DNA from: Candidatus Moraniibacteriota bacterium
GTDB lineage: Bacteria; Patescibacteriota; Minisyncoccia; Moranbacterales; UBA1568
Reading direction: 5' to 3'
Length of the DNA stretch: 64,000 nt
Assembly (NCBI GenBank): GCA_016699875.1
Contig: CP064989.1
Coordinates: forward strand, 252,326 to 316,325
Within the stretch, counting starts at the first letter, position 1. Every line of letters starts with the position of its first letter. This document shows positions 1-53,343 of the stretch, piece after piece. The notes under the pieces were generated by a model, which saw only the letters and a program-made list of their open reading frames with translations, searched no databases and was not told the origin of the DNA. Position numbers and translations under genes: made by a program.

Positions 1-956
1 TTCTCAATGAGAAGAACGATGCACTGACATCGCTTTTTCCGAAGCTCTCTGCGAAGATTTCCGGGCAAGAAACAGCACTCAAGACACTGTCTCGAAATAT
101 TATCCGCTCCCAACTCGGACTCAAGAATCATGCCAACCGACCATCGGGATCATTTCTCTTCCTCGGGCCTTCCGGCGTTGGGAAGACACTCACCGCAAAA
201 ACACTCGCCGAAACGCTCTTCGCCACAAAACACTCATTCCTTCGTTTTGACATGAGCGAATTCAGAGAGCGCCATACCATGGCACAAATGATCGGCTCCC
301 CTGCCGGATACGTCGGATTCGGCGAAGGAGGGAAACTCACCGAACACATACGGCGCCACCCCGCTTCAGTCATCCTCTTCGACGAAATTGAGAAAGCGCA
401 CCCGGATGTGCTCAACCTCTTGCTGCAAATTCTTGAGGAGGGCATCCTCACCGATGCTGAGGGAAGACAAGCCCATTTTCGAGAGAGCATTATCATTCTC
501 ACGTCGAATATCGGCACGGAATCATTCCTCAAAGAAGGCAGCTTCGGTTTCGGCAACGCAGCGAACCCTTCATTTGAATCCCTACAAGAAGAAGCGTTGC
601 GAGAACTCAAGCGCTCGCTTCGCCCAGAGCTTCTTGCCCGCCTCGACCATACCATTGTTTTCCGTCCGCTCGACGCATCCTCACTCTCGGAAATAGCCGC
701 CGGAGAACTTTCCCGCCTCGCTGACAATATGAAACACCATGCCGTTCGTCTCAGGAGAAGTCCGACTCTCGCCGAGTTCATCGGCGAGAAAAGCTCCAAA
801 GAATCAGGCGGCGCGCGCGCTGTCCGAAACATTATCGGACAATACATCGAGGATCCGATTGCCGACCTGCTCATTGCGGCAAAACGATCTCCAAAGAGTA
901 TTTCTCTCTCCGTTCCATCATCCAGAGACCGCGTGACTATCAAGGCAACACCATGA
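1..956 (+). CDS. Clp-family AAA+ ATPase, C-terminal (D2) part; the 5' end is truncated by the window edge
   Basis: In-frame translation from nt 3 gives ...SGSFLFLGPSGVGKT (Walker A), DEIEKAHPDVLNLLLQILEEG and the sensor-2 region, typical of the ClpA/B/C second nucleotide-binding domain. No stop occurs upstream of the listed ORF at 252-956 in the same frame. Confidence 0.8.
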   Translation, partial: LNEKNDALTSLFPKLSAKISGQETALKTLSRNIIRSQLGLKNHANRPSGSFLFLGPSGVGKTLTAKTLAETLFATKHSFLRFDMSEFRERHTMAQMIGSPAGYVGFGEGGKLTEHIRRHPASVILFDEIEKAHPDVLNLLLQILEEGILTDAEGRQAHFRESIIILTSNIGTESFLKEGSFGFGNAANPSFESLQEEALRELKRSLRPELLARLDHTIVFRPLDASSLSEIAAGELSRLADNMKHHAVRLRRSPTLAEFIGEKSSKESGGARAVRNIIGQYIEDPIADLLIAAKRSPKSISLSVPSSRDRVTIKATP

Positions 957-14465: not shown

Positions 14466-14846
14466 ATGAAAAAACAAGTTGTCATCCTTCTCTCTTCACT
14501 CATACTTATCCTCGGCACAAATGCCCTAGTAACAGAGCGGTATGTTTCGCATGCCGAGGATGATGACGATGAGGAAGAGTATGAAGACGAAGATGAAGAC
14601 GATGATCGAAGCAGTAAAGACTCCCAACAAGACGATGTCGAGTCTGAGAAGACAAGCGTTACCAAAGAGACAACTCTTGTGCCGGTGACAACCATCACCC
14701 AGCAGGAAGTAGCCACAGTGCTCACCGACAGCGACGGAGACGGACTCTACGACAATGAAGATCCGCATCCGGACATCCCTGAAATCTACATCGTACGCGA
14801 TGACAACAAAAACGGCATCGCAGACTACCTGGAAACCTCGCCGTAG
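14466..14846 (+). CDS. Secreted acidic protein with a Ca-binding (thrombospondin type-3-like) motif
   Basis: Signal peptide (MKKQVVILLSSLILILGTNA), a D/E-rich stretch, and DSDGDGLYDNEDPHPD (DxDxDGxxDxxD). Confidence 0.5.
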   Translation: MKKQVVILLSSLILILGTNALVTERYVSHAEDDDDEEEYEDEDEDDDRSSKDSQQDDVESEKTSVTKETTLVPVTTITQQEVATVLTDSDGDGLYDNEDPHPDIPEIYIVRDDNKNGIADYLETSP

Positions 14847-14869: not shown

Positions 14870-15847
14870 ATGACTCCGAATCACCCAAACACGAAGGAGG
14901 CACTTCTCTCAACGACCCGTCTCTTTCGCGCTATGGGAACGGAGACATACCTCGAAATAGTCCACCGAAAAGGCGAGGAAAGGAAGGCCGAACAAACCCT
15001 GGCAAGCACAGTAAAGGGCTGTTTTGAAAAGATACGGATTTTCAATCGCTTCGATCCCGAAAGCGAACTCTCGGAATTCAATCGTCATCTCGGGAAATTC
15101 CGAAATGCCTCGCCGGATATGCTCGCTCTCGCACTTCACACTCTCTCGTTCCATAAAGAAAGCAACGAACTCTTCGATCCGCGCATCCTGTCAATTCTCA
15201 AGCATATCGGGTATGATGCGGATTTCTCCAAGATGCCTGCAAGCCTGCCTGTACTGGAAAAGTTATTCTCTCCTCGGACAGCGCCTCTGAGAAGCGAGCT
15301 TTCTGTATGGGGTGAAATGATACGATTCGAGGCGCCGATGGACTTTTCCGGAATAGCCAAAGGGTATATTCTGGACAAAATGGCCGAGCGGATACGGCAA
15401 GACGACTGGTCAAACTTTCTCGTTGACTCCGGCGGCGATATGGTGGCATGTGGCACGAATCGCGCGAGAGAAAAGTGGCGCATCAGTGTCGAGAACATAC
15501 CTGAAGAGTCCGCTCTTTTTGAAATGACAAACCAGGCGATTGCCACCTCAGGCATCACCAGAAAACACTGGGTGTCTTCCCGAGGAAAACACTATCACCA
15601 TCTCATTCATCCAAAACACCCGAACAATTTTTCATTCAATCTTCTGTCAGTCACCGCAATCTCAACATCTGCCGAGCGTGCCGATTTTCTCGCCAAGACG
15701 CTGTTTCTCATGGGAATTAAAGACGGTTTTTCTTATGCAAGCAAACATTCCATCCCCGCACTCTTCGTTCAAGCAAAAGCCAAAAACCCAACAACCAATC
15801 CTTGGATCATGACCCCGAAGATAAAACCATTCCTCGCCAAACAATAA
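14870..15847 (+). CDS. apbE: ApbE-family FAD:protein FMN transferase
   Basis: RLFRAMGTETYLEI (AMGT signature) and the conserved ApbE core. Confidence 0.75.
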   Translation: MTPNHPNTKEALLSTTRLFRAMGTETYLEIVHRKGEERKAEQTLASTVKGCFEKIRIFNRFDPESELSEFNRHLGKFRNASPDMLALALHTLSFHKESNELFDPRILSILKHIGYDADFSKMPASLPVLEKLFSPRTAPLRSELSVWGEMIRFEAPMDFSGIAKGYILDKMAERIRQDDWSNFLVDSGGDMVACGTNRAREKWRISVENIPEESALFEMTNQAIATSGITRKHWVSSRGKHYHHLIHPKHPNNFSFNLLSVTAISTSAERADFLAKTLFLMGIKDGFSYASKHSIPALFVQAKAKNPTTNPWIMTPKIKPFLAKQ

Positions 15848-15858
15848 ACTCTCCCACT

Positions 15859-16776
15859 ATGAAGATATCTACTCTCGTATTTACTGCCGCTATTGGAGCG
15901 CTTCTTCTTGCTCCGGCAGCCACTCGCGCCGCAGACACTTCCGACCCCATATCCTACCCCGACGGACCCGTGCTCGATTCCGATCTCGACGGATTAACCG
16001 ACATTGGAGAGACGACGCGTTTCCAAACCGACCCGAAAAATCCCGACAGTGACAGCGACGACTGGTACGACGGCACGGAAATACTGGCGCAAACAGATCC
16101 GCTCGACCCGACATCGCCGTCGGCGACCGTCATCGTTACCTCTGATCCGTCTTCGGTGCAGGTGCCCTGGGTCTGGTATGTCACGCGCGCTTCGGGACTC
16201 ATTGCTTTTGCCTTCGCATGGCTCGCCATTTTCCTTGGTATTGCCGTCCGACTTCCCATTCTCAAAGATATCATTCGCCCCGCCTATTCCCTCTCTGTTC
16301 ACTACACCATTGCTGTTCAGACGCTCTTCTTTGCTCTCCTTCATGGCATAAGCTTCCTCTTTGATCCGTTCATACGGCCAACAATTGCCGATGCATTTAT
16401 TCCCTTTCATATAGCCGCCGATAAAATCAATCCTCTTTCGCTCGCGCTCGGCATCATGGCATTTTACGGATTTATCGTTCTCGTCCTCACCAGCTGGATC
16501 AAACCCATGATCCCGCAACGCCTCTGGCGCATCACACATTTCCTCAACATATTCGTATATGTTGCCGTCATCGCTCACGCGCTCCTTCTTGGCACCGATA
16601 TGAAAGTCCCACTCTACCGAAACATTTTCATCAGCGCCAATATATTCCTCATGTCGCTTCTCCTCATGAACTTCGCCCTCAAACTCGCCAACGTCATCCG
16701 CCACACGATTACCAAACAGCAACCGGTACCGGAAGAAATACCTGCTGGCAGTTCAAACACGCAAACCCTCTCTTGA
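15859..16776 (+). CDS. MsrQ/YedZ-like (ferric-reductase-type) heme-binding 6-TM protein with an N-terminal secreted Ca-binding repeat region
   Basis: Signal peptide (MKISTLVFTAAIGALLLAPAATRA). Two DxDxDG-type repeats follow (DSDLDGLTD, DSDSDDWYDG). Then a 6-TM domain with paired His in TM helices (HYTIAVQTLFFALLHG, HFLNIFVYVAVIAHALLLG). Start is the internal ATG 12 nt after the apbE stop. Confidence 0.6.
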   Translation: MKISTLVFTAAIGALLLAPAATRAADTSDPISYPDGPVLDSDLDGLTDIGETTRFQTDPKNPDSDSDDWYDGTEILAQTDPLDPTSPSATVIVTSDPSSVQVPWVWYVTRASGLIAFAFAWLAIFLGIAVRLPILKDIIRPAYSLSVHYTIAVQTLFFALLHGISFLFDPFIRPTIADAFIPFHIAADKINPLSLALGIMAFYGFIVLVLTSWIKPMIPQRLWRITHFLNIFVYVAVIAHALLLGTDMKVPLYRNIFISANIFLMSLLLMNFALKLANVIRHTITKQQPVPEEIPAGSSNTQTLS

Positions 16777-16852: not shown

Positions 16853-18532
16853 TTACTGTATCTTTCCAATACTCCTCAGATATCCCTCCGGATATCCATT
16901 CAGCAGGAAAGGAAATACGGCGACTACTTTTCCCGATCCCATTCGAATCGATGACACCAGAGCGAGTTGTCCAGAAAGAAGGTGTTGAGTTGCCGGAAGT
17001 CCGGGACGATACAGCTCGAGCGCTCGAGTACGAAGGTTTTTGATACCATCAACCACTCCCTCCGAGATACCCGGAACATTCCTCCAGAGAAACTGTGCCA
17101 ACTCATCAGATGACATATCAGCCCACGAAGTTTCCCCCCATTCTAGAGCAGACAAGCCTTCGGCAACCTCTTTGGGGACATCTTCGTAAACTCGCTCGGA
17201 AATAAAAACCGGAACCGGACTTTTCACAAATGCAGACACATCGCTTCCAAAACATTCCTCGATGAAAGAACGCTCTCCTTCCGGAAACCGTCCGGCACCA
17301 CGATTCCCTCGCACAATAGAAGCTGCAAAGCCAGCAACATACGAAAGCATAGCTACGCCACCATTACTATATCCATTAACAGGAAATGGCGACGCCATAT
17401 CGTACGGACCACGGGCGAACGTCGTCACAACAACCACACCTTCCTGATGTTGTTTGTACGGATAACCTCCCCCGGAACTCAGAAGATGACCGAGGATCGC
17501 ATTCGAAAGAAGTATCGACATGCGAAGACGGAACTCCACTGAATCTTCTGCAAGAACAGGGAATATCCGTTTCAATTCACTTCGGAGACGCGGCGCCACT
17601 TCATCCCAAATATCCGCGATATACATCCAGAGCCGACGCATACTCTCATCGTAGTGCCGTCGAAAATCAATCTCTCCAACCTGAGATTTCGCTTGTTCGC
17701 ACACATCGAATAGAATACCTCCGTTTTCTGAAAGAACCGCTGTCGAAAGAGTTTTCCTCTCGCGAGCCAGTGCCTCCAAAACAGCCCCGGTGTAGCCTTC
17801 CCGCGTCACGCGATGATCAGAGAGAGATACCCCTTGATCAAGTCCCATGAAAAGAAACCCGCGTTCCACATCAAAAGACGTTTGAATCACGAAAACCTTT
17901 TCACTACTCAAATTACCGTACGCTCGATTCGAAAAATCATGAATCGCAAGGGCAATATCTTTCTTTCGCATCACGTCATTGAGCAAACCACCGTCAGAAG
18001 CCGGGACTCCCGAAGACGCTTTTTCTTCCTCGCCCTTCGCAGCACAGTGACTGTGACTATCTAAGATGACAACTACTCTCCCGAATTTCCTCACTCGATC
18101 ACGAATCTCGCGCGTAAAGTCTCCCTCTACAAGATAGAAACTCCCATCCTTCATACGGAGAGCATCGGAAATATCCGCTGCCGGAGTACGAAACGATTCA
18201 CCGGAAAGTCCAAACACCGTCTCCACAAGAACGCGCCCATCGATACAGAGACATGGGAGGATCTCTTCTAAGGAAGCGCCAATTACGCGCTCCATGAAGA
18301 GACGAGCCTCTTGCATTTTTTCTGACGCCAGATCCGCAACTCGCGCATTCCTTGTCGCGATAAATCCACGAACAAGAAACTGGAGATAACGGACTTCCGG
18401 AGTATTCTTATCCCGAGAGAACAGTTGAGAAAAACTGTCGATGTATCTGTCCACCATAATCATAACTCCTATTGTTAACCGTCGGGGGTTTCCGACAAAC
18501 CAGGGAGAGTATAAAAGAAAAGAGCGTTTCAA
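16853..18532 (-). CDS. Large hypothetical protein with beta-carbonic-anhydrase-type zinc motifs (CsoSCA-like?)
   Basis: CIDGR (CxDxR), then about 65 aa later DSHSHC (HxxC), which is the spacing of beta-CA zinc ligands. 559 aa with non-ATG (TTG) or internal Met start candidates. I recognise no other domain. Confidence 0.3.
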   Translation of the reverse strand: MKRSFLLYSPWFVGNPRRLTIGVMIMVDRYIDSFSQLFSRDKNTPEVRYLQFLVRGFIATRNARVADLASEKMQEARLFMERVIGASLEEILPCLCIDGRVLVETVFGLSGESFRTPAADISDALRMKDGSFYLVEGDFTREIRDRVRKFGRVVVILDSHSHCAAKGEEEKASSGVPASDGGLLNDVMRKKDIALAIHDFSNRAYGNLSSEKVFVIQTSFDVERGFLFMGLDQGVSLSDHRVTREGYTGAVLEALARERKTLSTAVLSENGGILFDVCEQAKSQVGEIDFRRHYDESMRRLWMYIADIWDEVAPRLRSELKRIFPVLAEDSVEFRLRMSILLSNAILGHLLSSGGGYPYKQHQEGVVVVTTFARGPYDMASPFPVNGYSNGGVAMLSYVAGFAASIVRGNRGAGRFPEGERSFIEECFGSDVSAFVKSPVPVFISERVYEDVPKEVAEGLSALEWGETSWADMSSDELAQFLWRNVPGISEGVVDGIKNLRTRALELYRPGLPATQHLLSGQLALVSSIRMGSGKVVAVFPFLLNGYPEGYLRSIGKIQ

Positions 18533-19176
18533 ACAAGAGCATCCGTATCGGGATTATTCCCATTCATCCTGTCCTGCATCATGCGTCTCTTCTCCTGCCT
18601 ATACTTCAAAATGCCTGGCAGAAATGACAAGATGATAATGATGACGACGATCGGGAGAATATATCGGTCGACATCAGGCACAACTTGCCCCAAGAAAAAC
18701 CCGCCGAGCAAAAGTCCGAACGACCACAGAAAGCCGCCAATCACGTTGTAGAAAAAGAACTCGCGAAAATTCATCCGCCCGACACCAGCGAGAATCGGCG
18801 CGAATGTGCGAACAATCGGCATAAATCGCGCAAGCACGATAGTCTTCGCACCATAGCGATTAAAGAATTCTTCTGCCCGACGAACATGCGACTTCTTGAA
18901 GAGCACCGACTCTTCGCGGCTAAAAAGCGACGTCCCAACGCGAAGCCCGAATATATACCCGGTCACATTCCCCAAGACCGCTGCGGTAAATACGATCATA
19001 AGAAGCGCCGGGAGAGAAAGCACTCCGCCGCTTGCCAAAAGCCCCGCCACAAACAAGAGGCTATCCCCGGGCAAAAAGAAACCCAGAAACAGCCCTGTTT
19101 CAGCGAATATGACTGCAAAGAGACCTATGTACCCGATAGTGAGGATAAACTCCGAGAGATTGACTCCAGGCAACAT
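18529..19176 (-). CDS. DedA/SNARE-associated family membrane protein
   Basis: FLPGDSLLFVAGLLA and the conserved DedA core. Start set at the internal Met (MLPGVN). Confidence 0.7.
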   Translation of the reverse strand: MLPGVNLSEFILTIGYIGLFAVIFAETGLFLGFFLPGDSLLFVAGLLASGGVLSLPALLMIVFTAAVLGNVTGYIFGLRVGTSLFSREESVLFKKSHVRRAEEFFNRYGAKTIVLARFMPIVRTFAPILAGVGRMNFREFFFYNVIGGFLWSFGLLLGGFFLGQVVPDVDRYILPIVVIIIILSFLPGILKYRQEKRRMMQDRMNGNNPDTDALV

Positions 19177-19277
19177 AACCGTTTCATTAGGCGAATAACC
19201 CCCACAGTATAGGTAACTTCCCCGAAAAAGGGAAGGGCTGATAGGAGTTGCTACTTTCAAGAAAATGTCTTTTCAAA

Positions 19278-20213
19278 TCAAACGCTCCGCCCAGCAGGCA
19301 CCCGAAGCAACTGATGCTCCCGTCCTTTTGGAAAAAGAGGTGCAACTTTCCACGACAGAAGCGCGATACCAAGTGCCAAGGAGAGCCACCCCGCAAGCGA
19401 ACTCGCCGAAATCGTTCCGGTAACGAAAATCGAGGAAAGCGCTCCCGTAATAAATGCGGCCGGCACCAAAAGACTCGCCACAAACCCTGCCGGCGCAAGC
19501 GAAAGTGCGCGATACCAGCAACTCACATATCCCACAAGAAGAAGACTCGTCAGAAATGTCCATCCCCAAGCAGACCAAGAAAGAGAAAACGCTATCCCGA
19601 CTTTTCCGGAAAGAACAAGCCAGCAGAAAATAACTACCGAACCGAGAATCATCCGAGCGCTCATGGCGGAGAGACTCGAGATATGATGGAGAACTTTCTT
19701 GGCGAGAATATTCTCAACCGCCCACAAGATCGTTGCCAGCAAAACCAAGACTTCCCCAAGACCAAACGAATGCCACACCGGAACCTGGAACAATAGGACA
19801 CCGAAGAGCAACAACCCCAAAGCGAAAGCATGCAACCAATCAACCCGCTCGCCCAAAAACGGAACCGCAAGCATTGCCACCCAAAGAAAAAGCGTCTTGT
19901 GGATAAACACCGCCGTCGCCGCCGGAATCATAGACAGCCCGCTAAAGTAGAGGAGAAACGGGATTCCGCCCCCAACAATGCCAATCAAGAAGAGCAATCG
20001 CTTGTCCCGAGAAGATGCCTCTCTGATTTCATTCGACTTCCGAAACCAAAGAAATACACCAAAAAATATCAGAGACACAATCGCATTCTTCAAAAACGTA
20101 AACACAACCGGATCGCCAACTTCCGAAACTGCCGCCTTCGTCAGAAAACCGTTCACCCCCGAAAAAAGAGCCGCTCCAAGCGAAAGAAAAACCGCCCGAA
20201 AGAAAATGCTCAT
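19278..20213 (-). CDS. EamA/DMT-family transporter
   Basis: About 10 TM helices with two EamA-like repeats. Start set at the internal Met (MSIFFRAVF). Confidence 0.6.
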   Translation of the reverse strand: MSIFFRAVFLSLGAALFSGVNGFLTKAAVSEVGDPVVFTFLKNAIVSLIFFGVFLWFRKSNEIREASSRDKRLLFLIGIVGGGIPFLLYFSGLSMIPAATAVFIHKTLFLWVAMLAVPFLGERVDWLHAFALGLLLFGVLLFQVPVWHSFGLGEVLVLLATILWAVENILAKKVLHHISSLSAMSARMILGSVVIFCWLVLSGKVGIAFSLSWSAWGWTFLTSLLLVGYVSCWYRALSLAPAGFVASLLVPAAFITGALSSIFVTGTISASSLAGWLSLALGIALLSWKVAPLFPKGREHQLLRVPAGRSV

Positions 20214-20349
20214 ACGCGTATGACGACATGAATTGTATGGACGTACGCAAAAACACTCTAAGTATACCACGACCACACGCAACAAAAGACAGCCCTGAAA
20301 AATCCCGGGGCTGTCTTCCTGATATCTTTTCTTCAAAGAAGAGTGGAGA

Positions 20350-37818: not shown

Positions 37819-37890
37819 GGTCCCATCGTCTATCGGTTAGGACATCAGGTTTTCATCCTGAAAAGAGGGGTTCGACTCCCCTTGGGACTA
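37819..37890 (+). tRNA. tRNA-Glu (anticodon UUC)
   Basis: Cloverleaf folded by hand: 7-bp acceptor stem (G1-U72), D-stem gtct/ggac, anticodon stem tcagg/cctga, loop ttTTCat, T-arm agggg-ttcgact-cccct. No encoded CCA. Confidence 0.7.
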
Positions 37891-37896
37891 CTTTCT

Positions 37897-45628: not shown

Positions 45629-45701
45629 GCGCGCATAGCTCAGCTGGTAGAGCAGTTGGCTCTTAACCAAACGGTCGGGGGTTCGAATCCCTCTGCGCGC
45701 A
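45629..45701 (+). tRNA. tRNA-Lys (anticodon CUU)
   Basis: Hand-folded: acceptor gcgcgca/tgcgcgc, D-arm gctc-agctggta-gagc, loop ctCTTaa, T-arm ggggg-ttcgaat-ccctc. There is a G27-A43 mismatch. Confidence 0.6.
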
Positions 45702-45746
45702 CATAAACACAAGTGGCATAGGCCCCGATAGCCTACTAGCGTCCCT

Positions 45747-45818
45747 GCCCCTGTAGCTCAATGGATAGAGCATGGGACTTCTAAGCCTGTGATGTAGGTT
45801 CGATTCCTACCGGGGGCA
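45747..45818 (+). tRNA. tRNA-Arg (anticodon UCU), anticodon stem poorly paired
   Basis: Acceptor, D-arm and T-arm (gtagg-ttcgatt-cctac) are canonical. The loop is ctTCTaa, but the flanking 5-mers tggga/gcctg pair weakly. Confidence 0.45.
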
Positions 45819-45856
45819 CAAAGAAACAAAAAATACCCTCCGGAAGTCTTCGGCGG

Positions 45857-45931
45857 GGTGACTATCGTTCAATGGTAGGACAGTGGTTTGTGGAACCATC
45901 AACGAGGGTTCGATTCCCTCTAGTCACCCCA
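45857..45931 (+). tRNA. tRNA-His (anticodon GUG) with an encoded G-1 and 3' CCA
   Basis: Acceptor gtgacta/tagtcac, discriminator C, CCA present, extra 5' G, anticodon stem gtggt/accat, loop ttGTGga. Confidence 0.65.
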
Positions 45932-48699: not shown

Positions 48700-48756
48700 A
48701 CGAAAAGCCCTTCGACAGAGTGCTCGAAAGGGCTTCGTGTTCGGACTGGCGGGGAC
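48700..48756. repeat. 57-bp direct repeat, copy 2 (overlaps the 3' 10 nt of tRNA-Asp and includes its terminator hairpin)
   Basis: Identical to 47769-47825. Contains aagccctttcga...tcgaagggctt. Confidence 0.8.
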
Positions 48757-48823
48757 GACCGGGCTCGAACCGGCGACCTTCTGCGTGACAGGCAGACGCT
48801 CTAACCAACTGAGCTACGCCCCC
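48747..48823 (-). tRNA. tRNA-Asp (anticodon GUC), CCA encoded
   Basis: Reverse complement folds as gggggcg-...-tctgc-ctGTCac-gcaga-...-cgtcccc-g-CCA. Confidence 0.7.
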
Positions 48824-48845
48824 AATATAATATCTGCTTCGCGAG

Positions 48846-48919
48846 TACCAGGGGAGAGATTCGAACTCTCGACCCCGGGCTTATGAGTCCCGTGCTCTAA
48901 CCAACTGAGCTACCCTGGC
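48846..48919 (-). tRNA. tRNA-Met family (anticodon CAU); elongator versus Ile2 type is ambiguous
   Basis: Reverse complement folds as gccaggg-ta-gctc...gagc-a-cggga-ctCATaa-gcccg-...-ccctggt-a. Confidence 0.55.
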
Positions 48920-51245: not shown

Positions 51246-51320
<75 letters not shown>

Positions 51321-51375
51321 GCAATGTCGCGACAGTATTTTCGATAGTACAAGAATCCCCCTCAAACGTCAATCG

Positions 51376-51449
51376 GTGGGCGTGCCAAGACTCGAACTTG
51401 GGACCTCGACATTATCAGTGTCGCGCTCTAACCACCTGAGCTACACGCC
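51376..51449 (-). tRNA. tRNA-Ile (anticodon GAU)
   Basis: Reverse complement folds as gggcgtg-ta-gctc-aggtggtta-gagc-g-cgaca-ctGATaa-tgtcg-aggtc-ccaag-ttcgagt-cttgg-cacgccc-a. Confidence 0.7.
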
Positions 51450-51546
51450 CGAAAACCAACAGCACGCCGGACATCATCCGACTCTCCGTAGCATCCTATC
51501 AAAAAGACCCGAGGAGCGCAAGATTCCTCGGAATATACGCCGAATG

Positions 51547-53266: not shown

Positions 53267-53270
53267 CGTG

Positions 53271-53343
53271 TGGACTGTAGGAGATTCGAACTCCTGACCC
53301 CCGCATTGCAAATGCGGTGCTCTACCAACTGAGCTAACAGCCC
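53271..53343 (-). tRNA. tRNA-Ala (anticodon UGC)
   Basis: Reverse complement folds as gggctgt-ta-gctc...ccgca-ttTGCaa-tgcgg-...-acagtcc-a, with the G3-U70 identity pair. Confidence 0.7.

Follow-up and report, generated by a model that had tools for sequence, protein, structure and literature searches.

The window considered here is the whole stretch of DNA that was analysed, i.e., 64,000 nucleotides from a Candidatus Moraniibacteriota bacterium. Found within it, at 16853-18532, is an open reading frame which the original prediction had described as encoding a 559-aa orphan protein. That open reading frame is real, but it lies on the minus strand and its 559 aa are a mechanical maximum, as read from a TTG start. 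The likely coding sequence is one of 534 aa with its ATG at 18457, a start that was chosen because AGGAG is found 8 nt upstream and because an identical database protein begins there. This is NCBI's 'hypothetical protein IPK84_01315 [Candidatus Moraniibacteriota bacterium]', encoded on a 1.09-Mb contig, to which the 534-aa CDS is 100% identical, and homologs begin as well at the position equivalent to its MVDRY. Residue numbering throughout is that of the 534-aa IPK84_01315 (= P0001). Transmembrane segments and signal peptides are absent from the protein, which therefore would be cytosolic. The features of the locus are collected in Table 1.

Table 1. Features at and around the IPK84_01315 locus (positions within the window).
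Feature	Positions	Strand	Basis
EamA (DMT) transporter	19278..20336	-	syntenic in 4 loci (position -2)
DedA/VTT-domain membrane protein, directly upstream of IPK84_01315	18529..19260	-	Pfam PF09335, synteny in 6 loci
5' part of the mechanical ORF, from its TTG up to the CDS, probably an untranslated leader	18458..18532	-	sequence reading, homolog starts
Ribosome-binding site AGGAG	18470-18466	-	8 nt upstream of ATG 18457
IPK84_01315 CDS, 534 aa + stop, CsoSCA-like two-domain beta-CA homolog	16853..18457	-	ORF, RBS, identical database protein, homologs, model
N-terminal region of three helices (residues 1-60), near-invariant R36 and R39	18278..18457	-	model DSSP, conservation
Catalytic beta-CA domain, helically elaborated (residues 61-330, approximately)	17468..18277	-	DSSP, hhalign to CsoSCA2/CynT, HMMER 6jqd/6jqc
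Motif 1, C71-I-D73-G-R75, first predicted zinc ligand and Asp-Arg dyad	18233..18247	-	conservation, alignment to beta-CAs
Motif 2, L-D-S-H135-x-x-C138-A-A, second and third predicted zinc ligands	18038..18064	-	conservation, alignment to CynT
H337-x-E339 signature opening domain 2	17441..17449	-	conservation, hhalign
Domain 2, about residues 331-534, degenerate beta-CA-like, without zinc ligands (pseudo-dimer partner)	16856..17467	-	
Strong hairpin resembling an intrinsic terminator (stem of 11 bp with 7 GC pairs) and T-run, 29 nt past the stop codon	16790..16824	-	
Ferric-reductase-like membrane protein (FRD)	15802-16776	+	convergent downstream, syntenic in 5-6 loci
ApbE flavin transferase	14870-15847	+	convergent downstream, syntenic in 5-6 loci

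IPK84_01315 is the last member of a same-strand series (rplJ, rplL, EamA, DedA, IPK84_01315) that ends at the terminator. The region between DedA and IPK84_01315 (18458-18528, 71 nt) contains a weak sigma-70-like TTGTTT-17 nt-TATACT, seen by eye only, a site which the consensus promoter scan did not report. The gene may possess its own promoter, that is, besides being reached by read-through from the rplJL-EamA-DedA transcript. The neighbors are as had been described earlier, with a heme/flavin membrane module (ApbE and the ferric-reductase-like protein) downstream and DedA upstream. Beyond ApbE, at 14466-14846 (+), is encoded a 126-aa secreted, highly acidic protein whose DSDGDGLYDNEDPHPD repeat resembles the Ca-binding thrombospondin-type-3 kind. 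Repeats of this type are seen also in the ferric-reductase-like protein, within its extracytosolic N-terminus, the ApbE gene lying between these two. Acidic repeat protein, ApbE and ferric-reductase-like protein may together constitute an extracytosolic flavin/heme electron-transfer module, and this putative module is conserved in 5-6 related loci. Elsewhere in the window are nine tRNA genes (Glu 37819-37891; Lys-Arg-His 45629-45931; Asp-Met 48747-48919; Met-Ile 51246-51450; Ala 53270-53343), with no Rfam families other than tRNA reaching gathering score anywhere in the 64 kb.

The interest of IPK84_01315 stems from a pair of motifs reminiscent of the zinc site of beta-class carbonic anhydrases (CAs), i.e., CIDGR followed, as originally claimed, about 65 residues later by DSHSHC. 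Both are present, as residues 71-75 (18247-18233) and residues 133-138 (18061-18044), respectively, with a spacing from C71 to H135 of 64 residues. Of the two His in HSHC, the first (H135) is the conserved ligand while H137 varies, and the second motif therefore is the canonical beta-CA H-x-x-C. Across 21 close homologs the pattern C-x-D-G-R-V ... L-D-S-H-x-x-C-A-A is invariant, while among full-length homologs the CxDxR...HxxC pair is found in 145 of 147, at spacings of 59-84. Among 200,000 shuffles of IPK84_01315 that preserve its composition, 31 contain the pattern CxDxR-(40..90)-HxxC.

A more diverse alignment (A2) consists of 57 members that are 20-37% identical to IPK84_01315. The sole residues that are invariant among these are D73, R75, H135, C138 and H337, with C71 and E339 near-invariant (56/57 each). 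A140 is found in 54/57 members and the Gly of CxDGR in 48/57. The Asp-Arg dyad, the conservation of which had been singled out earlier as worth checking, thus is complete (57/57 for both residues). Variable Cys and His residues, which had been named as counting against a zinc site, are not what is seen (C71 56/57, H135 57/57, C138 57/57). Near-invariant residues are found outside of the zinc site as well, i.e., R36, R39, D155, G157, L158, K165, W277, N319, R386, W445 and P516, several of which are basic. By analogy, these outer residues might constitute a site for an anion or metabolite, like the RuBP pocket of Cyanobium CsoSCA (Arg266/Lys469/Arg560).

The statement that nothing else in this protein resembles known families holds at the level of sequence profiles. 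Single-protein searches of Pfam, NCBIfam and PDB sequences, that is, returned no match even at E<=10, and this includes PF00484 (Pro_CA) and the NCBIfam CA models. Pfam searches with the 57 diverse members gave scattered noise and no consistent family, and no database source gives any family member a name. A word-indexed search recovered 21 relatives, all of the named ones being Moraniibacteriota, and a later profile search of the same database added one named member, from Uhrbacteria. An exhaustive profile search yielded 208 clusters (50% identity) at E<=1e-3, with 168 of them at E<=1e-30, and nearly all of the 208 are full-length proteins of 500-640 aa. The IPK84_01315 family itself is 520-640 aa in length, with a median of 550. 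Scanning of GTDB species genomes with the closer alignment (A1) as query gave 19 loci, the hosts of which are Moraniibacteriota, Uhrbacteria, Falkowbacteria, Peribacteria, Roizmanbacteria, Microgenomates, Saccharibacteria and ‘Patescibacteria group’ MAGs. This is, then, an unannotated family that is spread through the CPR/Patescibacteria.

A few TPA MAGs that carry the family gene are labelled instead as Bdellovibrionales, Gammaproteobacteria or Udaeobacter. Three of these (L005, L007 and L009, ‘uncultured Bdellovibrionales’) possess the same EamA-DedA-CA|FRD-ApbE block as do Moraniibacteriota, and because of this shared gene order they probably are mislabelled CPR bins. The MAGs labelled ‘Udaeobacter’ and ‘Gammaproteobacteria’ (L010, L015) also carry the gene. 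Distant members of the family (P0037, P0139, P0024, P0056, P0090) display hydrophilic N-terminal extensions, of 50-150 aa, ahead of the core. These extensions, which also lack transmembrane segments and signal peptides, probably are disordered. They recall, by analogy, the disordered RuBisCO-binding N-terminus of carboxysomal CsoSCA, such that a role in partner binding is conceivable.

Structure prediction, which had been proposed earlier as a check, yields a beta-CA-like fold rather than the lack of one that would have spoken against a CA. The AlphaFold2 model, based on a 21-sequence alignment, has a pLDDT of 92.5 and a pTM of 0.89. DSSP assignments place C71 at the end of a strand (66-71) and H135 at the end of another (128-135), with C138 just preceding a helix (139-149). 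As modelled, this layout of strands and ligands is that of the beta-CA topology, i.e., an alpha/beta fold with a parallel beta-sheet core and with ligands ending strands 1 and 3. In Foldseek comparison with the PDB, beta-CAs fill all of the best 50 matches. The six of these that are significant span the full length of the protein, and they are CsoSCA of Cyanobium (8thm) and of Halothiobacillus (9g4t and 2fgy) as well as the internally duplicated Porphyridium enzyme 1ddz. From these full-length matches it follows that there are two beta-CA-like domains in the one chain, arranged as in CsoSCA. The second domain has no conserved Cys or His at ligand-equivalent positions in the 57-member alignment. 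The protein thus has the form of a fused pseudo-dimer, consisting of a catalytic and a defunct domain with a single predicted zinc site per chain. Comparison of the domain 1 and domain 2 profiles was negative for internal duplication at the sequence level, and the duplication therefore is visible only structurally. A published account of CsoSCA views its C-terminal domain as a diverged copy of the catalytic one from which the zinc site has been lost (PMC11086599), and domain 2 of IPK84_01315 matches this account.

Similarity to canonical beta-CAs is distant. A HMMER profile of the 57 sequences matches the fungal beta-CAs 6jqd and 6jqc at a borderline E of 1e-3, with three further beta-CAs near E 1, and places CiDgR...RtpAG of the family on CMDAR...RNAGG of 6jqd. 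An hhalign comparison with E. coli CynT, statistically weak given a two-sequence target, places C71/D73/R75 on CSDSR and H135/C138 on the HSNC of GHSNCG. Canonical beta-CAs (PF00484; CynT/Can, Cab, CafC/CafD 6jqc/6jqd) are single-domain proteins of 160-230 aa which form true dimers with two sites, whereas IPK84_01315 is a fused two-domain chain with one predicted site. The duplicated beta-CA of Porphyridium purpureum (1DDZ), as known from its structure, retains a zinc site in both of its repeats, whereas IPK84_01315 has ligands in domain 1 only.

Relatedness to the carboxysomal enzyme is indirect. As a control, the CsoSCA from the cso locus of a Nitrobacter hamburgensis plasmid (L023) was used, and this matches PF20687, PF20686 and PF08936 strongly. 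None of the 57 family members (0/57) matches any of these three Pfam domains, and a full-length CsoSCA HMM, run with --max, gives a best family score of 2.9 bits. Direct homology to carboxysomal CsoSCA was rejected, since no link was detected by hhalign or by full-length HMMs in either direction. The family differs from carboxysomal CsoSCA (CsoS3; 2FGY, 8THM, 9G4T) in lacking detectable similarity even profile to profile, in lacking its RuBisCO-binding N-terminal peptide and ‘hook’ NTD (PF20687 negative), and in lacking nearby carboxysome or RuBisCO genes.

What connects the two is CsoSCA2. These are stand-alone PF08936 genes reported from 9 genomes of Cand. Moranbacteria, 8 of Falkowbacteria and 3 of Uhrbacteria as well as from further phyla (PMC9164163). 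The same group has been described as a ‘non-cso’ cluster, shorter and with a single zinc site per pseudo-dimer (Pulsford et al. 2024, PMC11086599). Data S1 of the latter includes the CPR sequences, e.g., A0A0G0BTW7 (Moranbacteria, 332 aa) and A0A1F5TLX1 (Falkowbacteria, 359 aa). They are 330-400 aa in length and display K-C-M-D-G-R ... T-Y-H-Y-S-x-G-D-x-x-R-G-C-A-G ... H-x-E-W. Comparison of the family profile with 11 CsoSCA2 sequences using hhalign gives a probability of 98.0%, E 2.6e-13, over 325 columns, i.e., almost all of CsoSCA2, with C71-I-D-G-R of the family aligned to KCMDGR. CsoSCA2 in turn aligns with carboxysomal CsoSCA at 98.3%, E 1e-14. With HMMER, the family and CsoSCA2 are linked by just 12-27 bits.

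Common to all three groups are the Gly in C-x-D-G-R, the Ala after the second Cys, and the H-x-E that opens domain 2, the last being found in 121/121 CsoSCA and 11/11 CsoSCA2 sequences (and, in the family, as H in 57/57 and E in 56/57). Like CsoSCA2, the IPK84_01315 family is encoded by stand-alone genes outside of carboxysome loci, in the same CPR phyla (Moran-, Falkow- and Uhrbacteria), and consists of fused pseudo-dimers that have a short N-terminus of helices and a single predicted zinc site. The family is not, however, the published CPR CsoSCA2, an equation which was rejected given the latter's shorter length, PF08936 matches and differing ligand motif. Spacing from the ligand His to the following Cys is 11 residues in 116/121 CsoSCA, where the two stand in Y-H-F-S...G-C, and 10 in 11/11 CsoSCA2, versus 3 in the IPK84_01315 family, and median lengths are 506, 352 and 550 aa, respectively. 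The last approximately 80 residues of IPK84_01315 (past about residue 455) furthermore have no counterpart in CsoSCA2. The family is set apart from CsoSCA and CsoSCA2 by all criteria of membership other than its architecture and its remote homology. Because it shares their signatures and is homologous to CsoSCA2, yet has its own spacing and length, its sequences place it in the CsoSCA-type lineage as a third clade, hitherto unannotated and remotely sister to CsoSCA2 and CsoSCA, which keeps the ancestral H-x-x-C. The kind of protein, i.e., CsoSCA-type beta-CA including stand-alone CPR forms, thus was already known. What is new is the unannotated family.

The reading that we prefer, at a probability of about 0.72, is of IPK84_01315 as a cytosolic, zinc-dependent CA of the beta class with CsoSCA architecture, its activity being predicted. 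The suggestion of a divergent CA, as originally made, thus gains support from the modelled beta-CA fold, the conserved ligands and dyad, and homology to CsoSCA2. The architecture may be described as ‘one active site for the price of two’, that is, N-terminal helices, then a catalytic beta-CA domain, then a degenerate beta-CA-like domain that would stand in for the second subunit of a usual beta-CA dimer. A single Zn2+ presumably is held by C71, H135 and C138. A salt bridge between D73 and R75 would keep the Asp off of the metal, leaving water or hydroxide as fourth ligand (the ‘open’, type-I state), and attack of Zn-OH- on CO2 would give HCO3-, with the reverse reaction occurring as well. H337 and E339, at the domain-2 boundary, most likely shape or serve the cleft of the active site, at the interface within the pseudo-dimer. 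The role of such an enzyme in non-autotrophic cells without carboxysomes would be a housekeeping one, with equilibration of CO2 and HCO3- serving, e.g., bicarbonate supply and pH/CO2 balance.

Other readings are possible at low probability, with none of them favored by the data. The same fold and zinc site might serve a different substrate, i.e., hydrolysis of COS, CS2 or another small heterocumulene, which we view as improbable. Equally improbable is a non-catalytic or regulatory zinc protein, that is, a CO2/bicarbonate sensor or a scaffold which keeps the beta-CA site for ligand binding. Some LCIB or CcmM-type CA homologs are indeed inactive, but in the IPK84_01315 family strict invariance is seen for the Asp-Arg dyad along with all three ligands, as is typical of active enzymes and unneeded for mere binding. 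Less probable than either is a joint reading, by analogy, in which the protein would be the soluble half of a CPR inorganic-carbon/proton module (DedA-coupled, or metabolite-gated at the basic surface of the defunct domain) and at once the ancestral H-x-x-C form of the carboxysomal CA lineage. A parallel for such gating is cyanobacterial CsoSCA, which is gated by RuBP.

Coupling to DedA can be viewed also on its own, that is, as a soluble CA acting vectorially with a PMF-dependent DedA in a DAB-like module for inorganic carbon uptake or pH homeostasis. DabA/DabB provides the precedent for this by analogy, a beta-CA-like protein there being coupled to a membrane subunit that translocates cations. 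DedA is, moreover, the same-strand, immediate upstream neighbor in 6 loci despite CA identities of merely 32-56%. The whole EamA-DedA-CA|FRD-ApbE block is syntenic throughout this clade, however, and the DedA-CA pairing therefore may be plain inherited gene order. The pairing also is absent from L001, a 53%-identical Moraniibacteria homolog located between rpsF-ssb-rpsR and uvrB, and from all other CPR lineages, and a 71-nt gap separates the two genes. DabA (DUF2309/PF10070), though a distant beta-CA-like protein with a membrane partner and in this a possible analogy for the DedA adjacency, is unlike IPK84_01315 in size and ligand spacing, and its PF10070 model matches neither IPK84_01315 nor any of the 57 members. 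No DabB-type (PF00361) gene neighbors IPK84_01315 within the window, the adjoining genes being DedA, EamA, ApbE and ferric-reductase-like. Coupling to DedA on its own we view as less probable still. Within the Nitrobacter hamburgensis control (plasmid 1; L023:1-1080), DabA (DUF2309) and PII genes lie directly upstream of LysR-cbbLS-csoS2-csoSCA, which is an ordinary arrangement, though one that supplies a reference sequence for DabA.

A survey of homolog neighborhoods, as had been suggested, covers 22 loci. Absence of a carboxysome or CO2-fixation context, also noted earlier, is borne out, with no cbbLS, csoS2, csoS4 or csoS1 in the window neighborhood or at the 21 other loci, and no RuBisCO, carboxylase, bicarbonate-transporter (SulP/SbtA), hydrogenase or carboxysome gene recurs among the 22. 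The syntenic block is limited to the Moraniibacteria-like clade, with neighbors unrelated in other lineages, and the block as a set of conserved functional partners was rejected in favor of clade-specific synteny. In two MAGs (‘Patescibacteria group’, L013:3997-5838, and Falkowbacteria, L021:3987-5827) the family gene comes right after those for ATP synthase beta and epsilon, ahead of which is gamma, all on the same strand. This adjacency may be coincidence or may be tied to proton or pH handling. Within the 64-kb window itself neither a second copy of the family nor a CsoSCA2 paralog was found.

Least probable, by far, is a chance motif match in a spurious or orphan open reading frame, for which nothing speaks besides the missing database annotation and which was ruled out by the shuffles (31/200,000) along with retention of the motif pair in 145/147 homologs.

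With IPK84_01315 read as a CsoSCA-type CA, at least 208 protein clusters from many CPR/Patescibacteria lineages, now ‘hypothetical’ and invisible to Pfam and NCBIfam, become assignable to the beta-CA superfamily, and this with specific predicted catalytic residues. The occurrence within one family of a CsoSCA-type fused pseudo-dimer along with an unmodified H-x-x-C implies, so far as sequences can tell, that fusion and site loss would have preceded the insertion between His and Cys by which CsoSCA and CsoSCA2 are marked. Descent of carboxysomal CsoSCA from stand-alone forms has been proposed (Sutter, Kerfeld & Scott 2022, PMC9164163), and the family is a third deep clade bearing on that origin. 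Lastly, that ultra-small, fermentative, host-dependent bacteria retain a 534-aa protein with predicted CA activity, and in some lineages CsoSCA2 too, points to a need, so far unappreciated, for such bacteria to interconvert CO2 and HCO3-.
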